Source: Pyrinomonadaceae bacterium (GTDB taxonomy: Bacteria > Acidobacteriota > Blastocatellia > Pyrinomonadales > Pyrinomonadaceae). Taken from it: 64,000 nucleotides of DNA. A program made the position numbers and the translations under genes. Below the pieces are notes generated by a model. It searched no databases. It had not been told where the DNA came from and was given only the letters and a program-made list of their open reading frames with translations. Shown piece after piece: positions 28,506 to 55,339 of this stretch. The number at the start of each line of letters is the position of its first letter. Positions within the stretch are counted from its first letter, which is position 1. The stretch covers positions 34,148-98,147 of the forward strand of contig JBFXJZ010000009.1 of the NCBI GenBank assembly GCA_050174305.1, in the 5' to 3' direction.

Positions 28506-29705
28506 CTATCTTACAAGTATAGGTCTATTAATGAGTTCCGACATTTCCGGTCCTTTGTAGTGTGGTTTAATCCAGATCAATTTTCTTTCTTCCGATCCTT
28601 TGCCGAATGGCTGCTTACGCCAATGACCTCTTACAATAAATCGAATGGAGAGTCTCTTTGTTTCGCTGCGACGATCATTTTCGAGTGCATCATTAACATT
28701 TTCAGTGCCATCATCTTCCACTACAATTCTCTGAATTATGAGAGGAGGGATATCAGCTCCAATCAAGTGATAATCTAGTCTAGATATTTCCCGATCTGAA
28801 TTCGGGGGATCAAACAATATCTCCCGTTTTTGCTTTCGATTCATCGACGCTGCTCGACGATGAGGAGATAATTTCTTGATTATTTCAGCGTCGTTCGACT
28901 CAAGATAAAGAATGCAGTTCAAAAGGACTCTATAAAACAACAAGACGCCGCGATTCTCATAAAAGTCATCGTCATCTAATGCAAATGACTTTTCGTCTTT
29001 AGACTCAGGCGAAATACTTAACCAATCTGTCCGAAGCATGTGTTTTATTGACCAATCCTCTCGAATCAAAAGCGACCGCTTCACAAAAAACGGCTCGCCG
29101 TTGGGTATCTTTTGATAACAAACAAACACCACCTTTCGAATACCACCTTCATCGGCACTCGTTACTGCTTCCGTCAAGAAAATATTTAGAGGTTCGAATG
29201 ATTCAGGATATGTTCCCCTCAACTGCCAAATTGCCTCAATTACTGATTTAGCAGTAATAACAAAAAGGCAGGACTCAAAAGGAAGCTTAATACTGCTTGA
29301 CGGAGCATCAAGCTCGGTATGGACTAGGTGTTCGACAAGATTATCTGTAAAGAATAAAGACTTCTTCCCAAAAAGTTCAAAATTTAGTAGCACTAAATAA
29401 TCAGCGGTAAGAAAAAACTCAATTCGTCCGACGGTGTTTTTGGAAGTGAAATCTTCCCACAGGCGACGGAAATACAACTCGTCGAATCCGGCTAATTGTC
29501 TAAAACTATTTTTCGCTTTTTGTGCGATGTTAGTAAAAGCATAGTCAAAATATCGATCGAAGCCTTTAAGTATGTCGGGATCAAAGAAAGGACCGCTCAG
29601 ACCCTCCTTTTGAATCAACCTTAAATCTTGACGAACGCACTCTGTGATCAAGGGCTGTTCCTCTGTGCGAAAATCATAGTATGTTTTAGGCAATGAAAAC
29701 GGCAT
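28506..29705 (-). CDS. Hypothetical protein (399 aa) in the AT-rich islet
   Basis: A long ORF in visibly AT-rich DNA. The C-terminus reads RFIVRGHWRKQPFGKGSEERKLIWIKPHYKGP. No family recognised. Confidence 0.5.
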   Translation of the reverse strand: MPFSLPKTYYDFRTEEQPLITECVRQDLRLIQKEGLSGPFFDPDILKGFDRYFDYAFTNIAQKAKNSFRQLAGFDELYFRRLWEDFTSKNTVGRIEFFLTADYLVLLNFELFGKKSLFFTDNLVEHLVHTELDAPSSSIKLPFESCLFVITAKSVIEAIWQLRGTYPESFEPLNIFLTEAVTSADEGGIRKVVFVCYQKIPNGEPFFVKRSLLIREDWSIKHMLRTDWLSISPESKDEKSFALDDDDFYENRGVLLFYRVLLNCILYLESNDAEIIKKLSPHRRAASMNRKQKREILFDPPNSDREISRLDYHLIGADIPPLIIQRIVVEDDGTENVNDALENDRRSETKRLSIRFIVRGHWRKQPFGKGSEERKLIWIKPHYKGPEMSELINRPILVR

Positions 29706-29773
29706 GGCTTATTCAACAACACTCAATAGATATCCTTCAAACACGCACTATAGGCCATGTTGTGCAAGCAACG

Positions 29774-30100
29774 CTACTCGCCAAGTATAAGGTGAAAATA
29801 AGCGAGGCCATGTCTTCCATCGTAGTGTAAAATCAATTCGCTTTCGGACTGAAATGCCTTCAGCGACAACTCTTCGGTTGGGTCGTCATAATAGTCCGTT
29901 TTGAAATGATATTGATTTTGATCCCTTAGAATAATCACTATTTCGAGATTCGAGTCTTCACCGTCTACTTCGCGCAACTCGAATCTGATTGTTCCCAGTT
30001 GATCGTTTGCGACAAACGTCTCCGAAACTATTTCATAGACATATGCACGGTTATCATAGACCCAAGTAGCTTTTATATCCCTGATCGTAGACATTTTCAT
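29774..30100 (-). CDS. Hypothetical protein (108 aa)
   Basis: An ORF co-oriented between the 139-aa and 399-aa genes. No motif recognised. Confidence 0.4.
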   Translation of the reverse strand: MKMSTIRDIKATWVYDNRAYVYEIVSETFVANDQLGTIRFELREVDGEDSNLEIVIILRDQNQYHFKTDYYDDPTEELSLKAFQSESELILHYDGRHGLAYFHLILGE

Positions 30101-30358: not shown

Positions 30359-30778
30359 TTATGCACCAATCAATGCGGGTTTAAGGTGGATTGAGTGTGC
30401 AGCTATGCGATATCTAAAATCTTCTCGAAAAACTGACAGGTCGCGATGGGTCGCATAAATAATGCGGACATTGACCGGCCGTGAGGTATTGGCCCCAACT
30501 TGAGTGATCGATTTTCCTTCAACAACCTTGACTAATTTGGTCTGAATATTTGGCTCCAGTTCATCTATTTCATCCAAGGAATAGTGTGCCGCCATTGGCC
30601 GCTTCAAACTTGCCCAGCTATGAACTTGCAGCCCCAGTGAACGCTCCCTTAACTTACGGATCAATTTCGCGGTACGCGTCTTGCTTGTTCCTGTTTCACC
30701 AAGCAAACAAGAGATCAAAAAATCGAGCTTTGCTAGAAAATTTATGTTTACATTCTCATTTTGCAAGGTGTATAACAT
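30359..30778 (-). pseudogene. Truncated or decayed sigma54-activator (bEBP) AAA+ fragment
   Basis: 139 aa: degenerate Walker A GETGTSKT, Walker B-like SLDEIDEL, then QTKLVKVVEGKSITQVGANTSRPVNVRIIYATHRDL..FREDFRYRI. The segment that should hold GAFTGA is missing, and so are the receiver and HTH domains. Confidence 0.45.
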
Positions 30779-30953
30779 TAAATACTAAAGAAAAACAGGA
30801 GCTAATTGCCTGATTGGAAAGAGGATAGTCTTTTTAAATCTTTGAAAAGCCGTCTCTCCTAACAAAGGTCGTACGACTACAAACCTTCAAAATGGTCATT
30901 GGTTACACGCCAATGTGATTCTTGTAACGAACCTGGGCGATTAGAAAACAATT

Positions 30954-31649
30954 TTGGCTAACTCGATCGTTTCCAAGTTGCAGACATCACCAGGATCCCC
31001 ACCCACGGGCGGACCTGGCGACGCACACGATCGCGAGGGCTTCGTCGCCGAATCATTAAAATTAATTCGAAAAGTCATCGCTGGGCGTAGATCCGTGCCT
31101 ATTGATGACGTTCCCGATATTTCGCAAGAGATCGTATTGAGACTCTGGAAGTGGCGCACCAAGTTCGGGGATAAAAGTGAGCGAATGGCCGAGGAAGATT
31201 GGTTGTCCTTCACTGCGCGTACCGCCCATAACGAAGTAAATCGAAATCTATCAAATCGCGGAAGACACGTCGAAGTATCGATTGATGACGTCGAGGTGAA
31301 TGAAGGCTCGCAAACCTCATCCTCAGCAGAAACTTTTCAACTTGTTGAAATTGCGTGGCAAGGTATTTGCAAGTTAAGTCTGCATCAAAGGCAGGCACTT
31401 CTTTTCAGTTCAGTAGATCTTGTACTTCATCTTTTCCAGTATGGAATCGAGGAAGATGAATTGTTAGAAACGCTCGGGTTGTCGAAGGAATCTTGGGAAT
31501 CTATTTCAGCAAGAATGCCTCTAACAGACCCTGAAATTGCTGAAATAGCGAATCTAGCGACCAGTAAGAGGCAAAGAGTGACCACCGCGGGTGCCATCAA
31601 GAAGGCAAGATGCGATGCCCGGAAGAGACTAAAGGAGTTGATGAAATAA
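30954..31649 (+). CDS. ECF-type sigma-70 family factor (atypical)
   Basis: A region-2-like stretch (DISQEIVLRLWKW ... SFTARTAHNEVNRNL) and a region-4-like stretch (LSLHQRQALLF ... IAEIANLATSKRQRVTTAGAIKKARCDARKRLKE). The ORF starts with TTG and the true start is uncertain. The next gene starts 1 nt after its stop. Confidence 0.55.
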   Translation: MANSIVSKLQTSPGSPPTGGPGDAHDREGFVAESLKLIRKVIAGRRSVPIDDVPDISQEIVLRLWKWRTKFGDKSERMAEEDWLSFTARTAHNEVNRNLSNRGRHVEVSIDDVEVNEGSQTSSSAETFQLVEIAWQGICKLSLHQRQALLFSSVDLVLHLFQYGIEEDELLETLGLSKESWESISARMPLTDPEIAEIANLATSKRQRVTTAGAIKKARCDARKRLKELMK

Positions 31650-32561
31650 ATGAATCAAGATCACTTATCAGCTGCTGAGGTCGCTATGTTTCGGGAAGAG
31701 AGTTTTTCTTCGCGATCGATTGAGATCGGCCGCCATCTTCTCGCCTGTAAAGAATGTCGAGCAAAACTGCCATCTGTTACTCCGCAGGAGTTTCGAGACT
31801 GTGTTCTCGGTGCTGACATCCCTCGATTGGATGAATCTGAACAAGAATACCGATTTCTCAATTTACCGGTACTGTCCTTTGCAAGAGTAGGTGCCTTTGC
31901 GGGATTCGCAGTTCTACTCTTGGCCGGGATCTATTTTATGGGCGTTCAGGGGTTAAATTCGTCCGGGGATATCGTTGTAAGAAGCAATGAACCTCCAATA
32001 GAAACATTCTTTGAATTGAAGCCGGAAGGCTCAGTCGTCGGTACAGCTTCCGGCGAGCGAGACCATGCGGCCACAAGACCAACGATTCAAACAGATGTAA
32101 CGACTCCGCCGTCGAATCTAAAGACGCGTCAAGTAACAACCCGAAAGGTCATGACCAAAGCTCCGGAGATTCGAAACTCAGAAACTCGCGGCAAGCTACC
32201 GTGTGGAGGCCAAAGATCTGTCGGTCTTGAAGCCCGACTTACCGAAGCAGGTCTGCTGCTAAGATGGAACAAAGTCCGTGGAACAGTCAAACTCAATGTC
32301 TACCTGTCTGATCTCGACGAAAAGCTGATAGACCATTTTGAGACTGTTGACCGAACCTCCCATGTGGTTTCAGCGAAACTTGACAATGAAACTGTCTATA
32401 GCCTGCGCCTGATCGTGACCCTTGAAAGTGGGGAAAGGATCGTAAGCGAGTCACAGAATTTCAAGGTCGGCGATTTAACAAATAACGCAAAATCAAGCGG
32501 TGCCGTTTCTGTACAAAAGACGACAGCCGCATCCGTACGCTGCGTGGAGGCAAAGCCATGA
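31650..32561 (+). CDS. Anti-sigma factor (zf-HC2 type) with TM and extracytoplasmic domain
   Basis: HLLACKECRAKL (H-x3-C-x2-C), a single TM (FAGFAVLLLAGIYFMGV) and a ~200-aa outer domain. Confidence 0.6.
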   Translation: MNQDHLSAAEVAMFREESFSSRSIEIGRHLLACKECRAKLPSVTPQEFRDCVLGADIPRLDESEQEYRFLNLPVLSFARVGAFAGFAVLLLAGIYFMGVQGLNSSGDIVVRSNEPPIETFFELKPEGSVVGTASGERDHAATRPTIQTDVTTPPSNLKTRQVTTRKVMTKAPEIRNSETRGKLPCGGQRSVGLEARLTEAGLLLRWNKVRGTVKLNVYLSDLDEKLIDHFETVDRTSHVVSAKLDNETVYSLRLIVTLESGERIVSESQNFKVGDLTNNAKSSGAVSVQKTTAASVRCVEAKP

Positions 32562-34537
32562 ACCCGTTCACTCATAATATGAATAGATATGAAGTCGCTT
32601 CGTCGTGGATCCCCGTCACTTTCATTACAACATTTGTACTGCTTTCGATCGTTTTTTTGTCTGTTATTTCGGCATCTGGTCAGGTGACCGACGAATTTCC
32701 GGTACCACCTTCGTTTGCTATCGAGGGAATTCCAACGATAAAGAACGCAGATGTTGAACACCTCTTTTTCGATCCCTCGGAAGTAAGAAGCAACCTAATC
32801 TGGGACGTTGACCGGACGAATCGCTCGATACTGGTAACCGATGAAAAGTCGTATATTTATCGGCTCGGTTCGCCGATGGGAAAACCGCAAAACCTGATCG
32901 ACGGCCGTTCCCCGAATATGGTTCGCGTAAGCCCGAAAGGTGGCGTATTCGCCTTCATCGACGATAAGGAAGATGCAGATAACTTTGAATTGCATCTCCG
33001 GGATGAAAACGGAAATATGCGCAAGCTTTCCTCATTTTCAGGCAAGGATGAGTCTGTGGAATCATTTGTTTGGGATGAATCTGGAAAGACGATCTTTTAT
33101 GCGCAGACTGATTACGAAAAGAAAGCAACTCGATTATGCAGCCACGACCTGTCAAAAATCACCTGCTACGACCTTGACCTTAACGGCATCTGGAATGTTA
33201 TTGACTCGGAGAAAAACAAGGTGCTTCTCAAATATTGGAAATCGTCCAGTAACCAGAGCCTTTATATTTACGACCTGATTTCGAAAAAGCTGACCACCGT
33301 CGAGGATAAAGGTAACTCGACAAGAGGATTTTTCGGCCAAGGCCGAGTCTTCTGGCTTTCCGAGGGGTCGGCGGAATGCGGTCCAGAGACTTGTCTTGCC
33401 TCGATGGACCTTAAGAACGGAAGCAGGAGGCGTGTAAGCTTGCCAAATGGTATCGCAAATCTGCAGGACGTAAAGATTTCACCGGATAAAAAGTCTTTCT
33501 TAATTCAGGAGATGCGCGATGGGATTGACAACATGCGCGTCGGCAGATTAGCGAAGAACGCGATCACTGAGACAGTGCCACCTTTCATTCGCGGTTCATA
33601 TGTTATCTGGAACACCCGATGGCTTTCGAATACGGAGATTGCGTACACAACTGAGAATATTGCTAAGCCCGCCTCAATAGAGGTCTTCGACATCTCGTCC
33701 AAAAGGACTACGGCCTGGACAAAAGAGAGGATACCAGCCCGGTTTGAGAACAAGGTGCGTCGACCAGAAGTGATAAAGTGGAAGTCCTTCGATGGCCTCG
33801 AAATATCAGGCTATATGATCAAGCCCCAACGAATTGAGGGAAGATCTCCGGTACTCATCTTTATCCACGGCGGACCGCAAGTCATCGATCGCCCGGTATT
33901 CAATTCGCAGGCCCTGAGATTCGCGGCATATCTTGGGCTAACGATCATACACACCAACATTCGCGGATCGAGAGGCTTTGGAATCGAGTTCATGGATGCC
34001 GACAACGGCGCCAAAAGGCGTGACGCGGTCAAGGACATCTCCGCTTTGCTGGACTGGGTCGAAAAACATCCTGAGCTTGACAGTGGCCGGATAGTTGTAC
34101 GCGGTGAGAGTTACGGCGGCTTTGTTGCTCTTGCCTCAGGGTTGCTAGAACCAAAGCGGGTAAAAGCCGTCATAGCCGAATATCCGTTGGTTTCAATTAG
34201 GGGCTTACTTTCCCAAAGTTCTATTGAAGAGTTCTCGATCAACGAATACGGCGATCCGAAAGACGAGCGACTAATGAAAGAACTTGATGATCTTTCTCCA
34301 TTAAACAACGTAGATCGTTGGAGCCGAGCTCCGTTGTTTATGACTAGGGGAAAGCTGGATTCAAGAAATCCCGAGAAAAACGTTCTCGACCTCAAGTCCC
34401 AACTGCAGAAAAAGGGCAACGAAGTTTGGTTCATATATGCGAAAGAAGCAGGACACGGCGTGGCCGGTCGTTATGTAACTACAGCGATGTATGAGTTTTT
34501 GAGGCAACAACTAAACAAAAAAGGAGAAAACAAATGA
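32558..34537 (+). CDS. S9-family serine peptidase (prolyl oligopeptidase / DPP type) with N-terminal propeller
   Basis: An N-terminal TM anchor; nucleophile elbow GESYGGF; C-terminal ...KEAGHGV (catalytic His region). Its start overlaps the anti-sigma stop. Confidence 0.85.
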   Translation: MNPFTHNMNRYEVASSWIPVTFITTFVLLSIVFLSVISASGQVTDEFPVPPSFAIEGIPTIKNADVEHLFFDPSEVRSNLIWDVDRTNRSILVTDEKSYIYRLGSPMGKPQNLIDGRSPNMVRVSPKGGVFAFIDDKEDADNFELHLRDENGNMRKLSSFSGKDESVESFVWDESGKTIFYAQTDYEKKATRLCSHDLSKITCYDLDLNGIWNVIDSEKNKVLLKYWKSSSNQSLYIYDLISKKLTTVEDKGNSTRGFFGQGRVFWLSEGSAECGPETCLASMDLKNGSRRRVSLPNGIANLQDVKISPDKKSFLIQEMRDGIDNMRVGRLAKNAITETVPPFIRGSYVIWNTRWLSNTEIAYTTENIAKPASIEVFDISSKRTTAWTKERIPARFENKVRRPEVIKWKSFDGLEISGYMIKPQRIEGRSPVLIFIHGGPQVIDRPVFNSQALRFAAYLGLTIIHTNIRGSRGFGIEFMDADNGAKRRDAVKDISALLDWVEKHPELDSGRIVVRGESYGGFVALASGLLEPKRVKAVIAEYPLVSIRGLLSQSSIEEFSINEYGDPKDERLMKELDDLSPLNNVDRWSRAPLFMTRGKLDSRNPEKNVLDLKSQLQKKGNEVWFIYAKEAGHGVAGRYVTTAMYEFLRQQLNKKGENK

Positions 34538-34782
34538 AGAAAATAAAATCACTTGGCTTAATGCTGGTGCTTTCGATAGGTCTGGTCGGCAATATCTTTG
34601 CGACCGGACCGGTTATAGCGGGTACTACTGGGGCCGCTCCGGGACTCCTCACGCTCGTTTTGGAACAGGTCCTATCGGCGTTCGGCGGTGAAAGCTGCCC
34701 CCTCCGAATATGCCAGAACTGTCGTCCGAATAGTGAGGGCGGTGATAACGGCAACGGTGACTGCCGCCCTCGAGATAACTAA
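34534..34782 (+). CDS. Small secreted Cys-rich peptide (82-aa precursor)
   Basis: A GGAG RBS and an ATGA overlap with the peptidase stop. Signal peptide MKKIKSLGLMLVLSIGLVGNIFA, with a C-terminus CPLRICQNCRPNSEGGDNGNGDCRPRDN (4 Cys). Confidence 0.5.
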   Translation: MKKIKSLGLMLVLSIGLVGNIFATGPVIAGTTGAAPGLLTLVLEQVLSAFGGESCPLRICQNCRPNSEGGDNGNGDCRPRDN

Positions 34783-37365
34783 ATGGACCAGAGCTTTTCG
34801 AAATGGTGTTTCCCTGGATTCGCGACAGCAAGCCGGTCAATATTACCCGGCTTGCTACTTTTACTTCTTGCGGCCGTTGGAATCCAAGGTCAATCAAAAG
34901 CCCTTTCGCCTTTACGAACTTTCTTCAACAACGGACAATTCGACGAGGTTGTGAGCCAAGCCCCTGAAGCTCTTCTGAAAGCACGCAAGACCGGAGCAGT
35001 GGCCACCTCTTCGGAAATTAACGTATTTTATGCTCTGGCCCTGATGCGGCTGGAGAGGTATGAAGAAGCGGCGACGGCTCTCGAAGAAGCCATGGCAGAC
35101 GCTGAAATCTCAAGACAGCCTCGAAGAATTGCGGCAGCGTATCTGGCTAGGGCCACGCATTTCCGTGCCCAGCGGGACTTTCCATCTGCGATAAAGTCCG
35201 CCCGCAGCGCTATGGTAGCTGCTCCTTCCGATCCGCAAATCAAGGTCGAATATCATCTCGCCATCGGCCGGATTATGTACTCGTCCGGGTACGACGTGGC
35301 TGCGATCATCTGGCTTGAAAAAGCCGAGAAACTGGCTAGCAGCCTTCCTACATCCGCTCTCCTCGATGTCCTTGGACATCTAAGCCTCTCGTGGGCATCC
35401 AAATTCAATTATGCAAGAGCGATAGAGTACGGAGAAAGATTGGTCAAGATCAGCGAGAAAACCGAATTCAAATTCCGTCACCGCCTCGCACACTACGAGT
35501 TCGGAGGGCTTCTAAGTGCGGTGGCTCAGGAGCGAAGAGCAAAGCAAATGCGTGAAACGGGCCTGAGACTCGCGTTTGCAGCTAACGACGAGTATCAGAG
35601 CTGTCTCTTTCTCACTGCAATTATACTCACTTCCCTATACGACGGTGACGTAAAGAGCGCCGAAAAACATCTCACCACACTTGATCGCGTCGATCGGAAA
35701 AAAAGATTTCAATTTGAGTCAATTTTGGGAAAAGCGGTTATCGCTGGCCTACAAGGACGAACGGAGGTGTCCGATCAAAGTTTCAAGGAACTCGAATCGC
35801 TCAAGGCTCATTCCGAATATATTATTCCGCACTGGAAGGCAGTCCTCGCCGAAAAAAGAAAAGACTGGGCCGGATTAATCAAACAAATGAAGGTTCTAGA
35901 GAAACTCACCGAAGAAGGTAACTTTCGCGAGGACCTGCCGGGCGTTTATTTTAGTCTGGCCAAGGGATACTGGGGATTAAATGAACCGGAATTGGCCATT
36001 GGGTACGCAAGCCGCTCAGCAGCGATCATCGAAAGTGATCGACCGACAGAGGACACCATTTTGTCGTTGTCGATGCTGGAGACGTACCATTCCGTTTACA
36101 GGTTGATGGCAGAAATTAAAGATAGCGGAAACAACGCAACTGCCGCTTTAGAACTTGCCGATTACTCAAAGGCTCGTGTGCTTCGTGATCGCATCGAGAC
36201 TTCGGCCCTTCGGCGTAAAGCCGATCTAGATAGCGAGACCCGCAAACTTGTGGAGGATCTCTCAACTCAATTAGTTGATGGAGGAAACGTGCGAGAGAAA
36301 TTGGCGGGTATTGAGAAAACCGTATCGCTCTCTTTGCCTCAAACCGTAACTGAACGAAAACTCAACCGGGAATTGCTTACCGCTAAAAATCTGCTCCGTG
36401 ACACCGCGATTGTCTCATACTATTTCACCGTCGGTGGCCAGCTACGAGCTCATGTAATCGAGGACCGAAAACCAGTCCGCTCGGTCGAATTGTCGCTTTC
36501 AGAGAGCGAGGCTGGTCTGATAGCACAATCCACCCGAACAAAGATCCGCGATAGGATCTTCTTCAAGAACGACGGAAAGGAAATCTATGACAAGCTACTT
36601 GCTCCATTGTCGCTTGATGCGAACCATATCGTGATCGTGCCGGACAAAGCCTTGTGGAAGATTCCGTTCCATGCATTAAGCCCTGATCGTAAATCCTACC
36701 TAATCGAACATCGAACCGTAACCTACGCGCCGTCTGTATCAATGCTCCTGAACGAACTCAGACAGCCGGCTCCAATCCGAAAAACCGTTCAGATTTTTGC
36801 TAATGATTCATTTCAAGACCGTTATTTGGCATACGTTAATCGCGAAGCCGCAAAAATCGCTGGCATTTTGGGCTCGAAACCTTTGATCGGTGCGACACGA
36901 ATGCAGTTCCTTGGCTCTGCCCTTGAAACCGACATATTACACTTCTCGATGCATGCACAAGTCAATCCGGATGAACCACTGGCGTCTTTTTTGGCGTTTA
37001 AGGCTAACGGCAAGGATCCGGGGCATATCACCGTGCAAGACCTTCTAAGCATTCGTCTCAAAAAGCAGAACCTCGCGTTTCTCGCCTCGTGCGAAACAAG
37101 CAATGTGCTTAACGGTGAAGGACTCGTAAGTATCGCATGGGCACTTCTGGGATCGGGAAGTTCGTCGGTGATATCTGCTCAGTGGGAGGCGAATGACCGC
37201 TCGACCGAGGAGTTTACCCAAGAATTCTACAGGCACTACCGCGAAGGCAAATCAACGGCAAAGGCTTTACAGGCCGCATCAATTTCTATGATCCGAAACA
37301 AGTCAAACGGCACGCACGAACCGTATTTCTGGGGAGGGTTTATCCTTCTTGGGGATTTCAGATAG
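34783..37365 (+). CDS. Exported TPR-repeat CHAT-domain (caspase-like) protease
   Basis: A signal/TM at the N-terminus and ~550 aa of TPR-like helical repeats. The C-terminal CHAT dyad context is ILHFSMHAQV (His) and LAFLASCETS (Cys). It starts directly after the peptide gene stop. Confidence 0.85.
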   Translation: MDQSFSKWCFPGFATASRSILPGLLLLLLAAVGIQGQSKALSPLRTFFNNGQFDEVVSQAPEALLKARKTGAVATSSEINVFYALALMRLERYEEAATALEEAMADAEISRQPRRIAAAYLARATHFRAQRDFPSAIKSARSAMVAAPSDPQIKVEYHLAIGRIMYSSGYDVAAIIWLEKAEKLASSLPTSALLDVLGHLSLSWASKFNYARAIEYGERLVKISEKTEFKFRHRLAHYEFGGLLSAVAQERRAKQMRETGLRLAFAANDEYQSCLFLTAIILTSLYDGDVKSAEKHLTTLDRVDRKKRFQFESILGKAVIAGLQGRTEVSDQSFKELESLKAHSEYIIPHWKAVLAEKRKDWAGLIKQMKVLEKLTEEGNFREDLPGVYFSLAKGYWGLNEPELAIGYASRSAAIIESDRPTEDTILSLSMLETYHSVYRLMAEIKDSGNNATAALELADYSKARVLRDRIETSALRRKADLDSETRKLVEDLSTQLVDGGNVREKLAGIEKTVSLSLPQTVTERKLNRELLTAKNLLRDTAIVSYYFTVGGQLRAHVIEDRKPVRSVELSLSESEAGLIAQSTRTKIRDRIFFKNDGKEIYDKLLAPLSLDANHIVIVPDKALWKIPFHALSPDRKSYLIEHRTVTYAPSVSMLLNELRQPAPIRKTVQIFANDSFQDRYLAYVNREAAKIAGILGSKPLIGATRMQFLGSALETDILHFSMHAQVNPDEPLASFLAFKANGKDPGHITVQDLLSIRLKKQNLAFLASCETSNVLNGEGLVSIAWALLGSGSSSVISAQWEANDRSTEEFTQEFYRHYREGKSTAKALQAASISMIRNKSNGTHEPYFWGGFILLGDFR

Positions 37366-37521: not shown

Positions 37522-37689
37522 ATGGAAGAAATTGACGCAAAAAAAACTGAGAAATTTGTCAAAGAAGTCATGATGACTGAGCGACGATATGGAACCGACC
37601 AGAAGAATCAGAAGTCGAATCGCCAAAGCGATATCCGAGACTGTCTTGAAAAGTTTGTTGTCAAGGAATTAAGCGATGAAGATAAATAG
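37522..37689 (+). CDS. Possible 55-aa leader ORF overlapping the ATPase start
   Basis: Hand-translated as MEEIDAKKTEKFVKEVMMTERRYGTDQKNQKSNRQSDIRDCLEKFVVKELSDEDK. It ends at TAG 37687-37689, 14 nt into the next gene. It is below the ORF-track length cutoff and I saw no clear RBS. Confidence 0.25.
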   Translation: MEEIDAKKTEKFVKEVMMTERRYGTDQKNQKSNRQSDIRDCLEKFVVKELSDEDK

Positions 37690-39691
37690 AATCGAGTTAG
37701 AAAACTTTCGACAATTTTACGGGAAGCAGGAACTCGTTTTCGCGACGGACCCTGAAAAAAACGTAACACTTATCCATGCCGAAAACGGCTACGGCAAAAC
37801 AACTCTGCTAAACGCGATTCTATGGACGTTCTTCAATAAAACTACCACAAAGTTTGAACAGCCCGACAAGATCCTCAACTTTGAAGCCGAATCAGAAGGC
37901 ACAACATTTGCGTCTGTTAGTGTGGAATTTCAGACCCAAAATGAAACATACATCGTCAATCGAAACTTTAGTAGTCGAGCTGATGACACTAGTTTTACGG
38001 CCTTCCGGGTCGAAAGCAGTGGGGCTCTCAGCCCCCATCCTGCGCCAAAGACGCTTATCGAATCGATCGTTCCACCAGAGATGGCAAAGTACTTTTTCTT
38101 CGATGGTGAGTCTGCCGAGGCATTCTCATCGGCGACCAATCATCAGGCGGTCGGTGATGCCATTCGGAACATCCTTGGAGTTGCCCTTGCGAATACTGCA
38201 ATCAACGACCTGAAAGACATCAGAAAATCCGTGGACAGAGAATTAGGTCAACTTCAAGGGGACGAGAAGCTTAAAGCGATTGAAGACGAGCTGTCCAAAA
38301 AGATCGAGCTACTTGAACAAGCTCTTGAATACAAAAAGAATTTCAAAAGCGATATTGCTACTTTCCGATCCCACCGGGACCAAATAGTCTCAGAACTTCG
38401 CGGTTTGGAAGGTAGCCGGCTCATTCAGGAACAACGTGATGACAAGGAAAAAGACTTGGCGGTGTTGAAGGGCGACATCGAGACGACGAAGGATGAAGCG
38501 ATGAGATGGGTCGGTGAACGATCGACTGCCCTAGTGAGCCGAAAGCTAACAACGGAAACTCTAGATTTCGTTGACGAAGCAAAACTAAAAGGACGAATAC
38601 CAAGTCCCTATAATGAGGACGTTGTTAAGGATTTGCTTGAAGCAGAAAGTTGTATTTGTGGACGTGGCCTTAAATCCGGCACGGAGGAATGGAAAGCCGT
38701 TGCCAGACTACTTGTCGACGCCGCAAGCGCGGAAGTCATTGATCGCGCATTACGAGCAAGAAGCCGAATAAGGTTCCTAAGGGAGCAGGCGACCGAAGCA
38801 CCTTCGGGACTTCAGTCGATTCAGAATCGGCTTTCCAAGATGGTTGCAAAACGTGCCGAGTTGGAACAGGTAATCGACGATCTAGGACAACAAATTCAAA
38901 ATCTCCCTCTCGAAGATATTGTTGCCAAAGAACGAGCACGGCGCGACTTGGACTTCAAGATTGAGAAAGAGGTTCGCAAACTTGGCGAAATGGATGCGGG
39001 CATTCGCAAGCTCGAAGCTGAAAAGCTGTCACTCGAAAAGGCCCTGGAGGGAGCCGCACGGTCCAACAAGCAGGCGCTCAAACTTCTGACTCGTCGCAGA
39101 TTGCTTGAAAGCTCGGTAAAATTCCTAGAGGAGCTTTTGAAACAATATGAGACTCAGGCTCGCGAAAAGATAGAGGCTCAGGTGAATAAGATTCTCGATC
39201 GCGTCGCCCACCGCGAATACAAATGCAAAATTAATAGTGATTTTTCGATAGAACTGATTTACGTGGGACGGTCCACACCCAAAAGTTCTGGTGAGAATCA
39301 ACTTTTAAGCTTAGTTTTTATTGCATCTCTGGTGAAATTTGCCGCAGAGCGAGTAGATGATGAGGACTTGGTTCTTAAGCCGGGCACAATAGCACCGTTG
39401 GTTTTGGATTCTCCTTTTGGCCAACTGGATGAATCCTACCGCGAAAGTACCGCATCGTGGATGCCGAATTTAGTAGAACAATTGGTGCTACTTGTATCCA
39501 CAACTCAAGGTACGGAAGAGGTGGTTTCTACCCTTAAGGGATCGATCGGAGCCGAGTATATGCTTGTCTCTGAGAATGCGGGTCCCCGAAACGAACGGAA
39601 ACCAACGGTTTTGGTTCATAACGGCGAGGCTCATACCACTTCGTTGTACTCCCAACCAAAGGCTTTGACCAGAATCGTGAGGCTTAATTAA
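37676..39691 (+). CDS. DndD-like SMC/ABC-type ATPase (restriction-side paralog; PbeA-like)
   Basis: MKINRIELENFRQF...AENGYGKTTLLNAI (Walker A), a long coiled-coil middle, then a C-terminal GENQLLSLVF signature and PLVLDSPFGQLD (Walker B/D-loop). Confidence 0.8.
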   Translation: MKINRIELENFRQFYGKQELVFATDPEKNVTLIHAENGYGKTTLLNAILWTFFNKTTTKFEQPDKILNFEAESEGTTFASVSVEFQTQNETYIVNRNFSSRADDTSFTAFRVESSGALSPHPAPKTLIESIVPPEMAKYFFFDGESAEAFSSATNHQAVGDAIRNILGVALANTAINDLKDIRKSVDRELGQLQGDEKLKAIEDELSKKIELLEQALEYKKNFKSDIATFRSHRDQIVSELRGLEGSRLIQEQRDDKEKDLAVLKGDIETTKDEAMRWVGERSTALVSRKLTTETLDFVDEAKLKGRIPSPYNEDVVKDLLEAESCICGRGLKSGTEEWKAVARLLVDAASAEVIDRALRARSRIRFLREQATEAPSGLQSIQNRLSKMVAKRAELEQVIDDLGQQIQNLPLEDIVAKERARRDLDFKIEKEVRKLGEMDAGIRKLEAEKLSLEKALEGAARSNKQALKLLTRRRLLESSVKFLEELLKQYETQAREKIEAQVNKILDRVAHREYKCKINSDFSIELIYVGRSTPKSSGENQLLSLVFIASLVKFAAERVDDEDLVLKPGTIAPLVLDSPFGQLDESYRESTASWMPNLVEQLVLLVSTTQGTEEVVSTLKGSIGAEYMLVSENAGPRNERKPTVLVHNGEAHTTSLYSQPKALTRIVRLN

Positions 39692-39692
39692 T

Positions 39693-40151
39693 ATGCGTGG
39701 AATAAAAGCTAGCAACACACATGAGGAGATGATTCGTCACCTAACGCACCCAGTTACAGGAAAGCCTGTATTTGATTCCATGAGAAGTCTAATCTGCTTC
39801 GCGGCGGTGCTGGGCTTTGAATACGGGAAAAAAGCTTCGTTGGGTCGCCAGCAGTTCGAAGCAGTTGACGGCCGCATTTTCGAGAATAGTGACCAAGCGA
39901 TTGATCTCTTATATCTGATAGCTCTCGCTCACGAAAAAGACGCTGATATTCTTCGCGTCGAAAACGAGGAGCAGATGGTGGCGATTTTTGAGCAATTCGC
40001 TCAGGGCGGCCTCGAGATACTTGCTGGGTGGCTTCGCGAGAAGCCGGAAGATACGGTTGGTGATCGGGCCATCATAAGCGCATTCGGTAAGTATGGGTTT
40101 CTGACCGCAGGAGATGACTCCGAAGTAACGCTGTCTCAAATATCTTTCTAA
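39693..40151 (+). CDS. Small dnd-associated protein (152 aa)
   Basis: It starts 1 nt after the ATPase stop. There is no catalytic motif. Its size and position match the small 'dnd system-associated' proteins found between the ATPase and the helicase in such loci; this is from recollection and was not verified. Confidence 0.45.
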   Translation: MRGIKASNTHEEMIRHLTHPVTGKPVFDSMRSLICFAAVLGFEYGKKASLGRQQFEAVDGRIFENSDQAIDLLYLIALAHEKDADILRVENEEQMVAIFEQFAQGGLEILAGWLREKPEDTVGDRAIISAFGKYGFLTAGDDSEVTLSQISF

Positions 40152-40166
40152 CCACTACGAAGTTGA

Positions 40167-42305
40167 ATGCTCAGAAATTTCCCATTTAAACAGGTTTACA
40201 GGTCCGATACTGACCACATCCTACGAGATTTTTACATTCCAGCGCTGACCGAATCTACAAAATACGATAGGGCCGTAGGGTATTTTTCGGCTAGCATGCT
40301 CTCCTACGCCGCACAAGGCTTATCGGCCTTCGTTGAAAATGACGGACACATGCGTTTGATTGTGGGCGGCGAGTTAGACGCCTCAGAGGTTCAGGCACTC
40401 CTCGATGGGTATGAGATGCGTGACCTTATCAGTAGGCTCGGCTCACAATTCGTTCAAGTAATCGAGAGCGTTGATGACGCAATTTTCAACCGGCGACTGG
40501 AGCTCCTCTCATGGTTAGTTGCGTGTGGAAGACTCGACATAAAAGTTGCCTTAAAGACCCAAGGGATGTATCACGAGAAAATCGGCGTATTTACAGATGC
40601 CCAGGGTGACAAGATAGTATTTCAAGGATCTGCTAACGAAACACGCAATGCTCTATTACCTGACTTTAACTTTGAGTCGATTACTGTGTTTCCTAACTGG
40701 AACAGCCAGTTGAGCAGTTACTGCGAACCTTTTATAACGGGTTTTGAAGATCTATGGGAAAACAAGACTCCCAACACCGTAACAATCGATCTTCCGGAAG
40801 CAGCGAAAGCGAAATTAATTGGCATTGCAAAGAAAACGACCAAAATATTAACGCCATCAATCGAACTGGATCTCTGGCGGGATTCTCAGTTTTCCAAGCC
40901 AGAAGAAGTTCATGAACCGTCGGGTCCGGTAATTCCCCCGACCCTCTATGGCGAGGAATTTGAATTGAAACGACATCAAAGAGAGGCTTTAGAGGCATGG
41001 CGCGCCAAGGGACTAACAGGTGTGATGGCACTGGCAACGGGAGCCGGGAAGACGATCACTTCGATTTACGGAGCAGTGAAAATTTATGAAGCTGAGCAAC
41101 GCCTTTTTATGTGCGTTGCTGTTCCGTATCAGAATCTAGCGGATCAGTGGGTTGCCGTTCTCAGGAAGTTTAATATTTTCCCCATCTCCTGTTACATGAG
41201 CTCGGCCAACTGGGTTGGGGAGCTTAGTGACGCGATTTCGTTTTATCAAACGGGAGCGACAAATTTCGTTTGCGTGGTCGTCGTGAATCGAACGCTACAA
41301 TCAGAACGATTTCAGAACTTGCTTAAACAGGTAAACGGAAGCCATCTTTTATGGATAGGTGATGAATGCCATCATCACGGCAGTTCGGGTCTCAATTCTA
41401 TGCTACCGCAACAGGCTGCGATGCGGCTCGGTCTGTCCGCGACTCCCGAACACTATTTCAATGAGGATGCTACGGATCGAATACTGGATTACTACGGACA
41501 GATTGTTGCCCGCTACACTCTTGCCGAAGCATTGGAAGAAGGTGTGCTCACCCCTTACAAATACTATGTAGAGCTAGTGGATCTCACGGCTGAAGAGGCC
41601 GAGGAATATCAAGGATTAAGTGAACAGATTTCCCGACTTGCAGCAATGAACCAGAATTCTGGAGCTACAGACGGAAACGACGCTATGAAGATTCTTTTAT
41701 TTCGGCGTTCACGCTTGATAGGTAAGGCGAAGAATAAATTCAAAGCGCTAAAAGATCTGCTCGCGAATTCATCGCCAAAACCACTGACGCTTTTCTATTG
41801 CGGCGAAGGAAATACCGAGGATGAAGATTCGGGAGACACCAGCAGACAGGTGGAACTAGTAACTTCGATCCTGCGTGACCTTAACTGGAAGAGTTCTCTT
41901 TTCACTAGTCAAGAGACAACTCATGCCCGTGTCGATTTATTGGACTGTTTTCGGTTAGGCTTGATCGATGCTCTGGTTGCTATGAGATGTCTCGATGAAG
42001 GTATCGATATTCCGGCGTGTAAAACGGCTTACATTTTGGCGAGCAGCCGGAACCCGAAGCAGTTTATTCAGCGTCGCGGCCGCATTTTGCGCAGATCTCC
42101 GGGCAAGGAATTTGCAGAAATCTATGATTTTGTTGTAAAAATGCCCGATGGATCTTCTGAAACTAATGATTATGAGCGAAAGCTAATTTCGGCGGAACTT
42201 GAAAGGGTCGCCGAATTTGCAAAACTGTCATTGAATCACGCAGAAAGCATTAGGGTCTTAGCACCTATTCTTCGAGTTCACAATCTATCGCATTTGATTG
42301 CTTAA
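40167..42305 (+). CDS. PLD-family nuclease fused to an SF2 (DEAH) helicase
   Basis: An HKD-like motif YHEKIGVFTD...GSANET; helicase motif I ALATGAGKT, motif II GDECHH and motif VI QRRGRILR. Confidence 0.85.
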   Translation: MLRNFPFKQVYRSDTDHILRDFYIPALTESTKYDRAVGYFSASMLSYAAQGLSAFVENDGHMRLIVGGELDASEVQALLDGYEMRDLISRLGSQFVQVIESVDDAIFNRRLELLSWLVACGRLDIKVALKTQGMYHEKIGVFTDAQGDKIVFQGSANETRNALLPDFNFESITVFPNWNSQLSSYCEPFITGFEDLWENKTPNTVTIDLPEAAKAKLIGIAKKTTKILTPSIELDLWRDSQFSKPEEVHEPSGPVIPPTLYGEEFELKRHQREALEAWRAKGLTGVMALATGAGKTITSIYGAVKIYEAEQRLFMCVAVPYQNLADQWVAVLRKFNIFPISCYMSSANWVGELSDAISFYQTGATNFVCVVVVNRTLQSERFQNLLKQVNGSHLLWIGDECHHHGSSGLNSMLPQQAAMRLGLSATPEHYFNEDATDRILDYYGQIVARYTLAEALEEGVLTPYKYYVELVDLTAEEAEEYQGLSEQISRLAAMNQNSGATDGNDAMKILLFRRSRLIGKAKNKFKALKDLLANSSPKPLTLFYCGEGNTEDEDSGDTSRQVELVTSILRDLNWKSSLFTSQETTHARVDLLDCFRLGLIDALVAMRCLDEGIDIPACKTAYILASSRNPKQFIQRRGRILRRSPGKEFAEIYDFVVKMPDGSSETNDYERKLISAELERVAEFAKLSLNHAESIRVLAPILRVHNLSHLIA

Positions 42306-42311
42306 AACACT

Positions 42312-44132
42312 ATGAACATCAAACCCGTTTACGCGACTGTGGGCGAACTCTTCCGTTCGCGTCCGATGTTCTATGTTCCAAAGTATCAAAGGGCGTACGC
42401 ATGGGAAGCGGATCCGATTAGCGATTTCATAAAAGACCTCAATAGCTGCATCGATAAACGAAAAGCCGGGCATGACGTGAAACACTTCCTAGGCGGGATA
42501 CTAAGCGTTGAGCATGATGTAGCGGGAGTTATTAACCAACACAAATACGAAATAATCGACGGTCAACAACGGATCGCAACTTTGTGTTTGCTTGCCGCCT
42601 CCCTAATTGCGACATATAAAGAATTAGAAATAGACGCTGGGAACGCCGGGCAAACCAGCGAACAGTTGATTCTAGGGCAGCGCATTCAAGATTTGACTCA
42701 TCGGTTTTTTGAGTTCCAACAGGAAGTCAACAACAATCTCGAAACTGCCGACGTTCTCACGTTGTCGAAGGCAGATGATTCGTTTTACAGACTCTTGATC
42801 CGAAGAATGCCGTGCGATTCGAGTTTGAGGGATTCTCATAAACGGCTTGAAAAGGCTTATTCATCTCTGGATGAAAATATCAAAGCGATTGTTAATCAGC
42901 AGTTTACGCTCAACGAAAAAATCAGTGAATTGAAAATAGTGGAAACGGTGTTGCTTGGTGATTTCACCGTCATTCATATGGTGGTCGATAAAAGGAAAGA
43001 TGCGTACACTCTTTTTCAAGTAATTAACGATCGAGGCGCAAATCTTACCGACGGTGACTTATTAAGGGCGAAAACGTTGGAGATTCTAGAGAACTTCGAC
43101 AACGAGCAAAACGCTGTAGAGGCTTTGTGGGACAAGATTTTGGTCGATCCCCCTTCAGAAACGAACAACTATTTGAATTGGATTTATGAATCTTACCAAG
43201 GAACAAGAACTGCCCAAAATGTCTTGTTTGACATGTTCCTTGATAAGTTTTTCCCTCAGCATCAACAATACAATTTGGGAACTTTCACCGTTGCTGATGC
43301 CCAAGCTCTTCATTCCACTGTAGAAAGGCTTTATAAGGATATTTTGCATTGCAGGAAGTTGGTTCAAGGACAATGGCCATTTGAACGCAGACGGCCCATC
43401 ACGGGATGGGATATTACTAGGTTAAACCTTCTTCTAGTGGATCTGGATCATTCGTTATCGATTCCGTTGTTTCTGGCAGCGTCAAACCTTACTCACACTA
43501 AGTTCTCAGAAATTGTACAGATGGTAGAGCGTACGTTTTTTAGATATAAACTAATCGCTAACCAACACGCCGCATCTCTTAAGGCGATTTATCTTCAGGA
43601 ATCGCTAGCGATCAGAACGAATCCTGGAACGTATGACGTTAACCATTTAAAGACAAAACTCGATGTGCTTATTAATACTAAAGCTGGAGATGCGGTGTTT
43701 CAAAGCGGGCTGGCAGCGCTCCAGTATCAAGAGTCGGGAGGTAATAAACCCCTTAAGTATTTCCTAATGAGCATTGAATACTATTATCAATGGTACAAAG
43801 CGGGTGCGGTTGGGATTCCTAAATGTTCGGACAAGAGTAGAGTGTATGATTTCACGGGAACATCAATTGAGCATGTCTATCCCAAAAGGGCTGCTCCAAC
43901 CGACGCCACCTTGGAGCCTTTAAAGAATACCCTCGGCAATTTAACAATTATGGATCCGAAACCCAACTCGACAAGTGGCAATGATGATTTTGCTACTAAG
44001 AAGCCAGTTTATTCTGCATCTTCAGTCGAATTGACCCAAGAGATTGGAGCAAAGGCAACCTGGACAACAATTGAAATCTCGGCACACCAAGCTTTGCTGA
44101 TCGGTATAGCTCTAAAGGTATTTCGTCCCTGA
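42312..44132 (+). CDS. DUF262-DUF1524 protein (GmrSD / SspE-like architecture)
   Basis: N-terminal YVPKYQRAYAWE and IDGQQRI (DUF262, ParB-like NTPase fold). C-terminal SIEHVYPK ... GNLTIM (DUF1524, His-Me finger nuclease). Confidence 0.85.
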   Translation: MNIKPVYATVGELFRSRPMFYVPKYQRAYAWEADPISDFIKDLNSCIDKRKAGHDVKHFLGGILSVEHDVAGVINQHKYEIIDGQQRIATLCLLAASLIATYKELEIDAGNAGQTSEQLILGQRIQDLTHRFFEFQQEVNNNLETADVLTLSKADDSFYRLLIRRMPCDSSLRDSHKRLEKAYSSLDENIKAIVNQQFTLNEKISELKIVETVLLGDFTVIHMVVDKRKDAYTLFQVINDRGANLTDGDLLRAKTLEILENFDNEQNAVEALWDKILVDPPSETNNYLNWIYESYQGTRTAQNVLFDMFLDKFFPQHQQYNLGTFTVADAQALHSTVERLYKDILHCRKLVQGQWPFERRRPITGWDITRLNLLLVDLDHSLSIPLFLAASNLTHTKFSEIVQMVERTFFRYKLIANQHAASLKAIYLQESLAIRTNPGTYDVNHLKTKLDVLINTKAGDAVFQSGLAALQYQESGGNKPLKYFLMSIEYYYQWYKAGAVGIPKCSDKSRVYDFTGTSIEHVYPKRAAPTDATLEPLKNTLGNLTIMDPKPNSTSGNDDFATKKPVYSASSVELTQEIGAKATWTTIEISAHQALLIGIALKVFRP

Positions 44133-44146
44133 ATTGCAGCCTCTAT

Positions 44147-44530
44147 TCAAGCACATAATCTTAAAAGGTCAGCCACATTTTCGATTTGTTTATTGCTCGC
44201 TTTGCTTGCCAAATATCCGATCCCGCGGTGCAGATGAAGTTTGAATTGTTGGTGCAATGTGTCTTCCGTGCGGGGAAAACCATCCTCATGACACCGGACT
44301 TTAAGTAAGGCGAGGTAGATTTCGTTATATTCACCGCCAAATACCTTCCATGTCATTTCAACAGAGCTGTCGGTAACTATCTTTGCGGGTGCTGGAATTG
44401 TGGGTTCCGCCAACGAAAGGCAGAACGCCCAGCGACAAAGGACGTTCCAGTTCGAAATACCAGTGACACGTTTCAGCCGGACGAGCTGATCTTTCGCCTG
44501 TTGAGAAAGTCGAATATGCTCTATAGCCAT
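44147..44530 (-). CDS. dndE: DNA sulfur modification protein DndE
   Basis: 127 aa, IRLSQQAKDQLVRLKRVTGISNWNVLCRWAFCLSL. It is the last gene of the dndBCDE order. Confidence 0.75.
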   Translation of the reverse strand: MAIEHIRLSQQAKDQLVRLKRVTGISNWNVLCRWAFCLSLAEPTIPAPAKIVTDSSVEMTWKVFGGEYNEIYLALLKVRCHEDGFPRTEDTLHQQFKLHLHRGIGYLASKASNKQIENVADLLRLCA

Positions 44531-44536
44531 AATTGT

Positions 44537-49216: not shown

Positions 49217-49272
49217 AAACAGTCGCTTCCGTTTCTATCACGGGATTGAAGGTTAATTGTATTTATATGGTC

Positions 49273-49306
49273 TGTATGTTATTTTGTCAATAGAATATAA
49301 CATACA
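49273..49306. promoter_or_regulatory. Perfect 10-bp inverted repeat in the dndA-dndB divergent region (candidate operator)
   Basis: TGTATGTTAT-N14-ATAACATACA, read directly from the sequence. It is centred in the 132-bp intergenic region. Confidence 0.35.
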
Positions 49307-49348
49307 TTTTGCTTTTTGATACACACATGTTTTGCGGGTTGATTTGTA

Positions 49349-52222: not shown

Positions 52223-52299
52223 TGGTCGGGACGACAAGATTTGAACTTGCGACCTCTCGCACCCCAAGCGAACGCGCTACCAGACTGCGCTACGTCCCG
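52223..52299 (-). tRNA. tRNA-Pro (anticodon GGG), canonical
   Basis: Reverse complement: CGGGACG TA GCGC AGTCTGGTA GCGC G TTCGC TTGGGGT GCGAG AGGTC GCAAG TTCAAAT CTTGT CGTCCCG A CCA. All four stems pair, and C1:G72 is typical of Pro. Confidence 0.9.
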
Positions 52300-54391: not shown

Positions 54392-54469
54392 GGAGACGTA
54401 GCTCAACGGAATCAGAGCGCCTCGCTTCGAACGAGGGGGTTGGAGGTTCGAATCCTTCCGTCTTCGCCA
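54392..54469 (+). tRNA. tRNA-Arg (anticodon TCG)
   Basis: GGAGACG TA GCTC AACGGAATCA GAGC G CCTCG CTTCGAA CGAGG GGGTT GGAGG TTCGAAT CCTTC CGTCTTC G CCA. Canonical cloverleaf with CCA encoded. Confidence 0.85.
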
Positions 54470-54481
54470 ATTTTCAAACAC

Positions 54482-54557
54482 GGGGATGAATGCAAAGCGT
54501 CGCGCGTCCAGTTTTTCAAGCTGGCCCTAGCGGGTTCGAGTCCCGCCTTCCCTACCA
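54482..54557 (+). tRNA. tRNA-Glu-like (anticodon TTC), non-canonical D region
   Basis: 76 nt that fit standard numbering. The T arm GCGGG TTCGAGT CCCGC and the anticodon arm CCAGT TTTTCAA GCTGG are fine. However it has A8 instead of U8, D-loop AAGCGTCG without the G18-G19 pair, a 13:22 A-C mismatch and a 6:67 T-T mismatch. Confidence 0.5.
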
Positions 54558-54559
54558 GG

Positions 54560-55063: not shown

Positions 55064-55086
55064 TGGGCAAAATATAACAGCACTAC

Positions 55087-55161: not shown

Positions 55162-55171
55162 ACATATTTAC

Positions 55172-55249: not shown

Positions 55250-55257
55250 TACTTCCC

Positions 55258-55332: not shown

Positions 55333-55339
55333 AGTTCAC

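Follow-up and report, generated by a model that had tools for sequence, protein, structure and literature searches.

A conserved five-gene cassette linking an ECF-like sigma factor to predicted extracytoplasmic proteases on a conjugative element of Pyrinomonadaceae

What is the role of an operon in which a sigma factor and its likely anti-sigma factor are followed by two proteases and a small cysteine-rich peptide, all three with predicted export signals? The question is raised by five genes near the middle of a 64-kb stretch of a Pyrinomonadaceae bacterium genome (contig JBFXJZ010000009.1; this whole stretch of 64,000 nucleotides is referred to here as the window). In order, they code for an extracytoplasmic function (ECF)-like sigma factor, a single-pass anti-sigma factor, a peptidase of family S9, a Cys-rich peptide and a protein with tetratricopeptide repeats (TPRs) and a CHAT protease domain (Table 1). 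We tentatively read this cassette as a split form of the switch typified by DdvA of Myxococcus xanthus, in which proteolysis would release a sigma factor that drives its own operon. The arrangement of the genes, the conserved features of their products, a recurrent break in their pattern of inheritance and a promoter-like motif upstream all bear on this reading, and several other explanations have to be weighed beside it.

Five conserved genes and their products

The preliminary description of this DNA had treated the five genes as a coupled operon, and the open reading frames (ORFs) are exactly as it claimed: the first and last junctions abut, and the second and third are 4-nt overlaps (ATGA). 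The genes also stay together in other genomes. A profile of the CHAT protein family retrieved 80 genomic loci, nearly all from metagenome-assembled genomes (MAGs) of Pyrinomonadaceae/Blastocatellia, and tblastn found all five genes, with order and spacing kept, in 52 of the 54 loci that have at least 4.3 kb of sequence ahead of the CHAT gene, over a range of 40–95% in CHAT identity. Most junctions fall between −4 and +20 nt, nearly all loci show translational coupling of the anti-sigma gene to the sigma gene (−4/0 nt), the peptide is present in every complete cassette, and gene calls on independent contigs give an identical layout. This co-occurrence exceeds chance by far, and the joining of a sigma/anti-sigma pair to two proteases and a small Cys-rich peptide, as first described, is a conserved unit, with export of the latter three predicted by hydropathy. 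The CHAT orthologs form a compact family of about 51 clusters at 42–95% identity, separated by a gap from generic CHAT proteins. Several MAGs carry 2–4 copies of the cassette, which share just 25–50% identity. A shortened copy (L084:9243-12595), consisting of a 168-aa S9 fragment, the peptide and CHAT and lacking both sigma and anti-sigma, shows that the cassette can decay; its neighbors are methyltransferases, a patatin/AAA system, and Lamassu and Cap4 genes.

The last protein of the operon contains TPRs and a CHAT domain (PF12770, E-value 9e-53), and the catalytic dyad expected of a CHAT protease is present on proper alignment: His724 and Cys770 are invariant in 30 orthologs and align with Craspase Csx29 at its CHG and ACET motifs. 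The two outcomes that the preliminary description had named as refuting it, five genes that do not co-occur and a CHAT domain without the dyad, are thus both contradicted. An AlphaFold2 (AF2) model (predicted local distance difference test, pLDDT, 81.9; this and the sigma model below were made with database homologs) is matched by Foldseek to Csx29, separase and DdvA, all with probability 1.0, the top TM-score being 0.48, to DdvA (8rot_A). A PDB profile search with the CHAT family returned TPR proteins only, and the NCBIfam Csx29 model scores 36.4 bits against a cut-off of 300.

The identity of the S9 peptidase is borne out by strong Pfam matches (Peptidase_S9, PF00326, E-value 1.2e-30; Peptidase_S9_N, PF02897, 30.9 bits) and by a conserved triad. 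The protein combines an N-terminal beta-propeller with an alpha/beta-hydrolase, and its triad (S518, within GxSYGG, D601 and H633) and four propeller cysteines are at least 95% conserved. Because the closest solved relatives are acylaminoacyl and prolyl peptidases, neither subfamily nor cleavage specificity can be named. The small peptide has a signal peptide (MKK..L..GN.FA) followed by a variable hydrophobic helix and then a motif, C-P-x-R-x-C-x-x-C-[RK]-P ... G-x-C-R-P, that is invariant in an alignment of 48 non-redundant sequences; it has no match in Pfam, NCBIfam or PADLOC. The N-terminal hydrophobic segments of the S9 protein (50 of 51 orthologs, by hydropathy), the peptide and CHAT are all conserved; together with a transmembrane helix in the anti-sigma, they agree with the signal or anchor sequences that the preliminary description had seen in all four downstream products.

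The first product is better called a very divergent ECF-like sigma. Its earlier description as an ECF sigma is supported by fold matches and by region 2 motifs, but the protein fails every curated threshold: it scores 13.1 bits (E-value 0.086) with Sigma70_r2 against a cut-off of 24 and 21.3 bits with TIGR02937 against 42.9, Pfam gives no Sigma70_r4 match, and a PDB search with a profile of 16 orthologs gave no match. Sigma70_r2 is matched weakly in 11 of these 16 orthologs, and a distant member of the family (P0387) reaches its threshold with 29 bits. A region 2.2-like motif (DISQEIVLRLW) and a region 2.4-like motif (WLSFTARTAHNEVNR) can be read from the amino acids. In region 4, which is atypical, about 35 aa are inserted, and this insertion accounts for the failure of the standard models. 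The AF2 model (pLDDT 74.6) finds ECF sigmas as its best Foldseek matches, namely sigmaE (1or7_A; probability 1.0, E-value 3e-3), AlgU and ECF sigmas of M. tuberculosis, with TM-scores that are low (0.24–0.30). The family comprises 309 representative clusters. The 2021 re-classification of ECF sigmas makes no mention of a CHAT or peptidase context in its main text. At one locus (L160:5963-9284) the gene of a distant family member is coupled to that of a soluble 68-aa HxxxCxxC protein, after which comes a TonB-dependent-receptor-like protein. The sigma family thus extends beyond the CHAT cassette and has retained a partner of the zinc-associated anti-sigma (ZAS) type.

The anti-sigma begins with a zinc motif in which H5, H29, C33 and C36 (H29-x3-C33-x2-C36) are invariant in 26 homologs. 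A transmembrane helix (residues ~77–100), a low-complexity linker and a domain resembling fibronectin type III (Fn3) follow; the Fn3-like domain matches PDB entry 7jgu (E-value 3e-4), is bracketed by the conserved residues C185 and C298, and has the invariant tripeptide T179-R180-G181 just ahead of it. Neither Pfam nor NCBIfam has a match for the window protein, zf-HC2 (PF13490) included; zf-HC2 is matched weakly by five of the 26 homologs (best E-value 0.019), and the family profile matches ChrR weakly over residues 4–39 (E-value 0.78). The motif and these weak matches suggest a single-pass anti-sigma of ZAS type, and from the motifs, the gene order and the coupling we infer that its zinc domain holds the sigma. 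The conserved cysteines of its outer domain, of the S9 propeller and of the peptide would fit an oxidising compartment.

Known proteolytic switches and a break at the membrane boundary

The preliminary description knew of no characterised example of such a composition. This has to be revised, for the DdvS/DdvA system of M. xanthus, an ECF sigma and a ZAS anti-sigma with a periplasmic TPR-CHAT region (PMC11506125, PMC6061681), is closely analogous, and the cassette has the composition of a split and expanded variant of it. In both, a sigma gene precedes that of a single-pass anti-sigma whose zinc motif is cytoplasmic, both have an extracytoplasmic (here predicted) TPR-CHAT region of the separase/Craspase type with a His-Cys dyad, and both are located among defence genes. 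The proposed logic is also alike, with CHAT acting as a site-1 protease ahead of intramembrane proteolysis; for DdvA, self-cleavage by CHAT ahead of RseP has been proposed rather than shown (PMC11506125). A second fused anti-sigma/TPR-CHAT protein, with a divergent sigma upstream, is found at another locus (L159). There are also clear differences. First, the TPR-CHAT protein here has an ORF to itself three genes further down and begins with a hydrophobic signal of its own, whereas in DdvA it is fused to the anti-sigma, and the anti-sigma here has only the linker and the Fn3-like domain outside the membrane. Second, the S9 peptidase and the four-Cys peptide are additions. Third, the host belongs to the Acidobacteriota and the cassette lies on an integrative conjugative element (ICE), whereas DdvS/DdvA is from the Myxococcota. 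A CHAT domain of the DdvS/DdvA type would be expected to lack the three-helix motif and to work as a dimer. Profile searches and hhalign found no sequence-level similarity between the cassette and DdvS/DdvA-type proteins; in the hhalign comparison, the sigma profile did not match the sigma encoded at the fused L159 locus.

Other systems share parts of this plan. Type III-E Craspase loci encode Cas7-11, the TPR-CHAT protease Csx29, its substrate Csx30, Csx31 and the ECF sigma RpoE (PMC10028731); as there, a TPR-CHAT protein is linked genetically to an ECF-type sigma and a restraining protein, and the CHAT fold and dyad align. Craspase is cytoplasmic and is activated by RNA-guided Cas7-11, whereas the proteins of the cassette carry predicted export signals, and no Cas7-11, Csx30 or Csx31 lies beside the cassette in the window. 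The RseA/DegS/RseP, RsiW/PrsW and FecR-type/Prc systems resemble the cassette in having a single-pass anti-sigma whose outer domain is clipped (here as a proposal) before a site-2 protease acts, and in having an autoregulated ECF promoter, for which the cassette has a candidate. The cassette departs from this canonical anti-sigma proteolysis in that the candidate site-1 enzyme is a caspase-like Cys protease whose gene shares the operon with those of an S9 peptidase and a peptide; to our knowledge, no known site-1 protease belongs to the CHAT or S9 families. Finally, separase, in which TPR or helical repeats are joined to CHAT, is a protease of the same fold class, and the small co-encoded peptide could by analogy be securin-like, although the separase-securin pair is eukaryotic and cytoplasmic or nuclear.

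If the inner and outer halves of such a switch are separate interaction units, this may be visible in how they are inherited. Six relatives share 74–89% nucleotide identity with the window from the promoter through the sigma gene, and this high identity ends at 31943-31991, that is at anti-sigma codons ~98–114, just past the transmembrane helix. Global identity correlations gave just a blurred two-module picture, and for that reason the breakpoints and a set of discordant pairs were analyzed instead. Among 2278 pairs of 68 cassettes, 78 have sigma proteins at least 70% identical and S9 proteins less than 65% identical; in these the anti-sigma averages 77% identity over residues 1–100 and 51% over residues 176–303, and the identity profile drops at residue ~100. 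Clustering at 70% yields 28 inner (cytoplasmic) and 22 outer (periplasmic) modules in 36 combinations. It is apparent from this pattern that S9, peptide and CHAT share their inheritance with the outer anti-sigma domain, and the sigma with the inner one. The break is sharp, recurs and lies at the membrane boundary, and it is consistent with two interaction units, one formed by the sigma and the inner anti-sigma and the other by the outer anti-sigma, S9, the peptide and CHAT.

A candidate promoter and the proposed cascade

Two conserved motifs precede the sigma gene. The consensus of motif B is TATAAAAACCCt-N13-AGGTTAC with fixed spacing, and this pattern has 31 matches in 1.23 Mb of the retrieved loci, 29 of them on the + strand and within 420 nt upstream of a sigma gene. 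In the window a position weight matrix scores it at 28.4 bits, compared with 8.2 bits for the next best site, and it is the sole match when up to one mismatch is permitted. Written as AAAC[CT]-N15-GGTTA, the motif is likewise restricted to the upstream region. The geometry AAC...N16...GTT is that of ECF promoters such as those of the SigH/SigR type, and motif B is a candidate ECF-type promoter of the operon. Motif A is less widespread; in the form TTTT[C]-N-CCGTCT it is present in 26 of 48 non-redundant upstream regions, and its CCGTC element is about eightfold enriched upstream of sigma genes; it may be an operator or a second promoter element. Motif B was not found upstream of any flanking gene, including the Pbe and Dnd defence genes, in the window or within 8 kb on either side of the 80 loci, as judged by motif scan only.

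Taken together, the cassette could work as follows. The membrane anti-sigma would restrain the ECF-like sigma through its cytoplasmic HxxxCxxC zinc domain and would present its periplasmic linker and Fn3-like domain as the target of the co-encoded periplasmic proteases. On an envelope signal the TPR-CHAT protease would make the site-1 cut, for which T179-R180-G181 is a candidate site; a site-2 protease of the host and cytoplasmic proteases would then release the sigma, and the freed sigma would fire motif B before its own operon, giving positive feedback. The peptide and the S9 peptidase would be accessory parts of the periplasmic half. Our preferred guess, by analogy with securin, is that the peptide may inhibit CHAT, or else serve it as an adaptor or decoy, and that an oligopeptidase-type S9 enzyme may process or remove the peptide.

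There are several reasons for this tentative choice. DdvA fuses ZAS domain, transmembrane helix and TPR-CHAT in one chain beside its ECF sigma, and the CHAT protein here has the separase/Craspase/DdvA fold and an invariant dyad. The five genes co-occur strictly and are translationally coupled, the module break just after the anti-sigma transmembrane helix recurs, and motif B, of ECF geometry, hardly occurs outside the region upstream of the operon. In addition, an oxidising compartment would suit the Cys pairs of the outer anti-sigma, of the S9 propeller and of the peptide, and the distant member of the sigma family likewise has a coupled HxxxCxxC protein. Other points weigh against it. The sigma and the anti-sigma both lie below curated hidden Markov model thresholds, and the export or membrane anchoring of S9, peptide and CHAT is predicted by a hydropathy heuristic only. 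Cleavage of the anti-sigma by any co-encoded protease is deduced indirectly, and even for DdvA cleavage by CHAT still has the standing of a proposal (PMC11506125). Co-inheritance of neighboring genes is expected from linkage, so that selection is suggested only by how sharp the breakpoint is and how often it recurs. Motif B is tied to the sigma by position only, and the reading does not account for motif A.

Moreover, if the sigma targets its own operon only, the proteases and the peptide could be the output of the switch and not its input. The sigma and anti-sigma would then respond to envelope stress by switching on S9, peptide and CHAT, either as a secreted peptide-maturation pathway (for a signal, a pheromone or a bacteriocin-like Cys-knot peptide, which the two proteases would excise from its precursor) or as a periplasmic effector that destroys incoming phage or conjugation proteins. 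The operon's own motif B is the sole strong site in the window and in the 80 loci with their 8-kb flanks, so that the operon products are the only visible output. The signal peptide, variable middle and invariant Cys/Arg/Pro core of the peptide resemble those of a precursor that is to be processed, short peptides are substrates of S9 enzymes, and the identity of the peptide best tracks that of the CHAT TPR region (rho 0.55) and of S9 (rho 0.50). Against this, the cassette lacks genes for a modification enzyme, a transporter or immunity; in the fused DdvA-type proteins it is the anti-sigma itself to which TPR-CHAT is tied; and the break after the transmembrane helix points to a need for the outer anti-sigma to match the periplasmic proteins, a need that output alone would not create. 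We therefore consider this explanation rather unlikely, although not to be dismissed lightly, and of the two roles suggested in the preliminary description, a proteolytic cascade that releases the sigma is favored, on indirect evidence, over maturation of the peptide. Reading the peptide as a ribosomally synthesised and post-translationally modified one meets the same lack of modification, transport and immunity genes, and survives only within the output explanation.

The conjugative element and its defence genes

The window carries an ICE. Its genes run from a VirB4/TraG-like ATPase through an SLT transglycosylase, coupling protein, relaxase, RNase H, a 577-aa backbone protein and a single-stranded DNA-binding protein (SSB) to the cassette, and on through PbeC/PbeA/Orf5 and DndDCB/A to an integrase beside tRNA-Pro (Table 1). 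The segment 50632-52299 is likely to hold the right end of the element and its attachment site; the GC content steps from ~0.45 to 0.53–0.58 beyond ~52 kb. Just outside, ten tRNA genes (Arg, Gln, Pro, Thr, Leu, Cys, His, Asp, Lys and Met) lie at 54392-57026. In a metagenome survey anchored on the 577-aa protein, about 22 of 25 loci with enough flank contain the cassette, at a variable distance from SSB, and among 44 CHAT-anchored loci SSB lies within 4 kb upstream in 29. The cassette is thus a near-constant module of one ICE family, placed between cargo hot-spots. It had been described as ICE cargo next to a defence island; the setting is as described, with the ICE and the Pbe and Dnd genes all in place, but such constancy is not that of occasional cargo.

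Table 1. Positions of the cassette, its upstream motifs and neighboring features in the window
Feature	Position	Strand	Remarks
Motif A	30830-30855	+	Inverted repeat CTTTTTAAA-tc-TTTGAAAAG, then CCGTCT, read from sequence
Motif B	30881-30906	+	AAACC-N15-GGTTAC, ends 48 nt before TTG start
Sigma gene	30954-31649	+	TTG start, 231 aa
Anti-sigma gene	31650-32561	+	303 aa
S9 peptidase gene	32558-34537	+	659 aa
Small Cys-rich peptide gene	34534-34782	+	82 aa
TPR-CHAT gene	34783-37365	+	860 aa
Sigma-54 activator remnant	30359-30778	-	Divergent from operon, GAFTGA region lost
PbeC	37676-39691		PADLOC strong match
152-aa gene			Between PbeC and PbeA
PbeA	40167-42305		PADLOC strong match
Orf5	42312-44132		PADLOC strong match
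DndD, DndC, DndB	44537-49216	-	
DndA-like cysteine desulfurase	49349-50476		
Tyrosine integrase	50632-51696	-	
tRNA-Pro(GGG)	52223-52299	-	

This location invites the question of whether the sigma controls the element itself. In 36 of 48 loci a sigma-54 activator (bacterial enhancer-binding protein, bEBP) or its remnant lies divergently, 200–350 bp ahead of the sigma gene. The intact 321-aa protein of one locus (L003:4824-5789) is PspF-like, with an AAA+ domain containing GAFTGA (Sigma54_activat), HTH_8 and no sensory domain, and tblastn matches the window remnant to its residues 6–162 at 47%. The only perfect sigma-54 sites in the window (TGGCAC-N5-TTGC; 0.08 expected), both on the + strand, precede transfer genes: one (7164-7178) ends 16 nt before ATG 7194, the signal-peptide-like start of the SLT transglycosylase, and the other (8164-8178) 27 nt before ATG 8205, which opens the type IV secretion system (T4SS) block. 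The transfer genes may therefore depend on sigma-54 and the bEBP, and it is these genes that the bEBP probably serves. A sigma-54 promoter for the cassette operon was also considered and rejected: the intergenic regions between bEBP and sigma genes contain no GG-N10-GC, even where the bEBP is intact.

The sigma might, then, transcribe the divergent bEBP and through it activate the sigma-54 promoters of the transfer genes, with the peptide as a self/non-self or density signal, a part that Phr peptides or pheromones play on other elements. The near-constant presence of the cassette on this ICE family, the two sigma-54 sites before T4SS genes and the position of the nearly palindromic motif B (AACC...GGTT) between the bEBP and sigma genes all agree with such a role, and many divergent cassette types in 2–4 copies per MAG would fit specificity groups. 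However, the bEBP is intact in only about 17 loci and has decayed in the others, roughly half of the loci and the window among them, while the five cassette ORFs and their catalytic residues are intact, so that the cassette has been retained where the bEBP has not. Moreover, no motif B site lies near the transfer genes of the window, one cassette (L001) is found among chromosomal genes, and the link from sigma to bEBP is one of adjacency only. Control of the element by this route seems improbable.

A similarly low probability attaches to a bolder form of the split switch, in which the cassette would act as a surveillance device on conjugative elements. The secreted Cys-knot peptide would restrain CHAT, S9 would remove the peptide when a foreign envelope-crossing signal (from a phage or a competing element) arrives, and CHAT would cut the anti-sigma in trans. 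If this were true, it would amount to a three-step extracytoplasmic protease cascade feeding a sigma factor, and the interchangeable inner and outer modules would yield many specificity types.

Downstream of the cassette, 37676-50476 constitutes a complete phosphorothioate defence pair (Pbe and Dnd), and cassettes elsewhere are flanked by AbiE, type I and type III restriction-modification, Thoeris, reverse transcriptase-Cas1 CRISPR, nucleotidyltransferase/HEPN, and Lamassu and CBASS parts. It could be supposed that the module senses phage in the periplasm and switches on these genes, or that it is itself a system of the abortive-infection type. Defence genes lie on one or both sides in every neighborhood examined, and DdvS/DdvA controls a CBASS-CRISPR island (PMC11506125). 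Here, unlike there, the motif B scan gives no sign of neighboring defence genes in the regulon. The neighbors differ from locus to locus and are often convergent, and none has motif B; a constant cassette beside varying defence genes looks like a backbone gene at a cargo hot-spot and not like a regulator tied to its targets. A known defence system can be set aside, as PADLOC-DB v2 gives zero matches for all five proteins. A defence role of either kind is accordingly the least probable of the explanations considered here.

Two further details concern the immediate flanks. Between SSB and the cassette, 28506-30100 (− strand) holds 399-aa and 108-aa ORFs where the GC content of the window is lowest (0.42); neither Pfam nor PADLOC matches them, and since they fill the slot of defence cargo in other copies of the ICE, they may be an undescribed cargo system. 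On the other side, a 55-aa ORF (37522-37689, + strand) lies in the 310-bp gap after the CHAT gene and overlaps the start of PbeC. No intrinsic terminator was found between the CHAT gene and PbeC, so that read-through into PbeC is possible in the window; it is not a general feature, because the neighbors are convergent in most loci.

If the cassette is indeed a split DdvA-like switch, it bears on a question that has been hard to approach. DdvS/DdvA includes the only studied anti-sigma with a periplasmic caspase-like domain, and the proposal that its CHAT domain acts as a site-1 protease has gone without a test because protease and substrate form one chain and the trigger has not been found (PMC11506125). 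In the cassette the protease and its presumed substrate are separate, which makes it possible to test directly whether CHAT cuts in trans, whether the peptide inhibits it and what S9 does. The sigma family is missed by standard models, and ECF censuses probably miss it too. For the soil Acidobacteriota that carry this ICE family, the cassette represents a conserved module at a defence-cargo hot-spot, and its inner and outer halves provide a natural 'domain-swap' data set that could reveal the parts that determine specificity.

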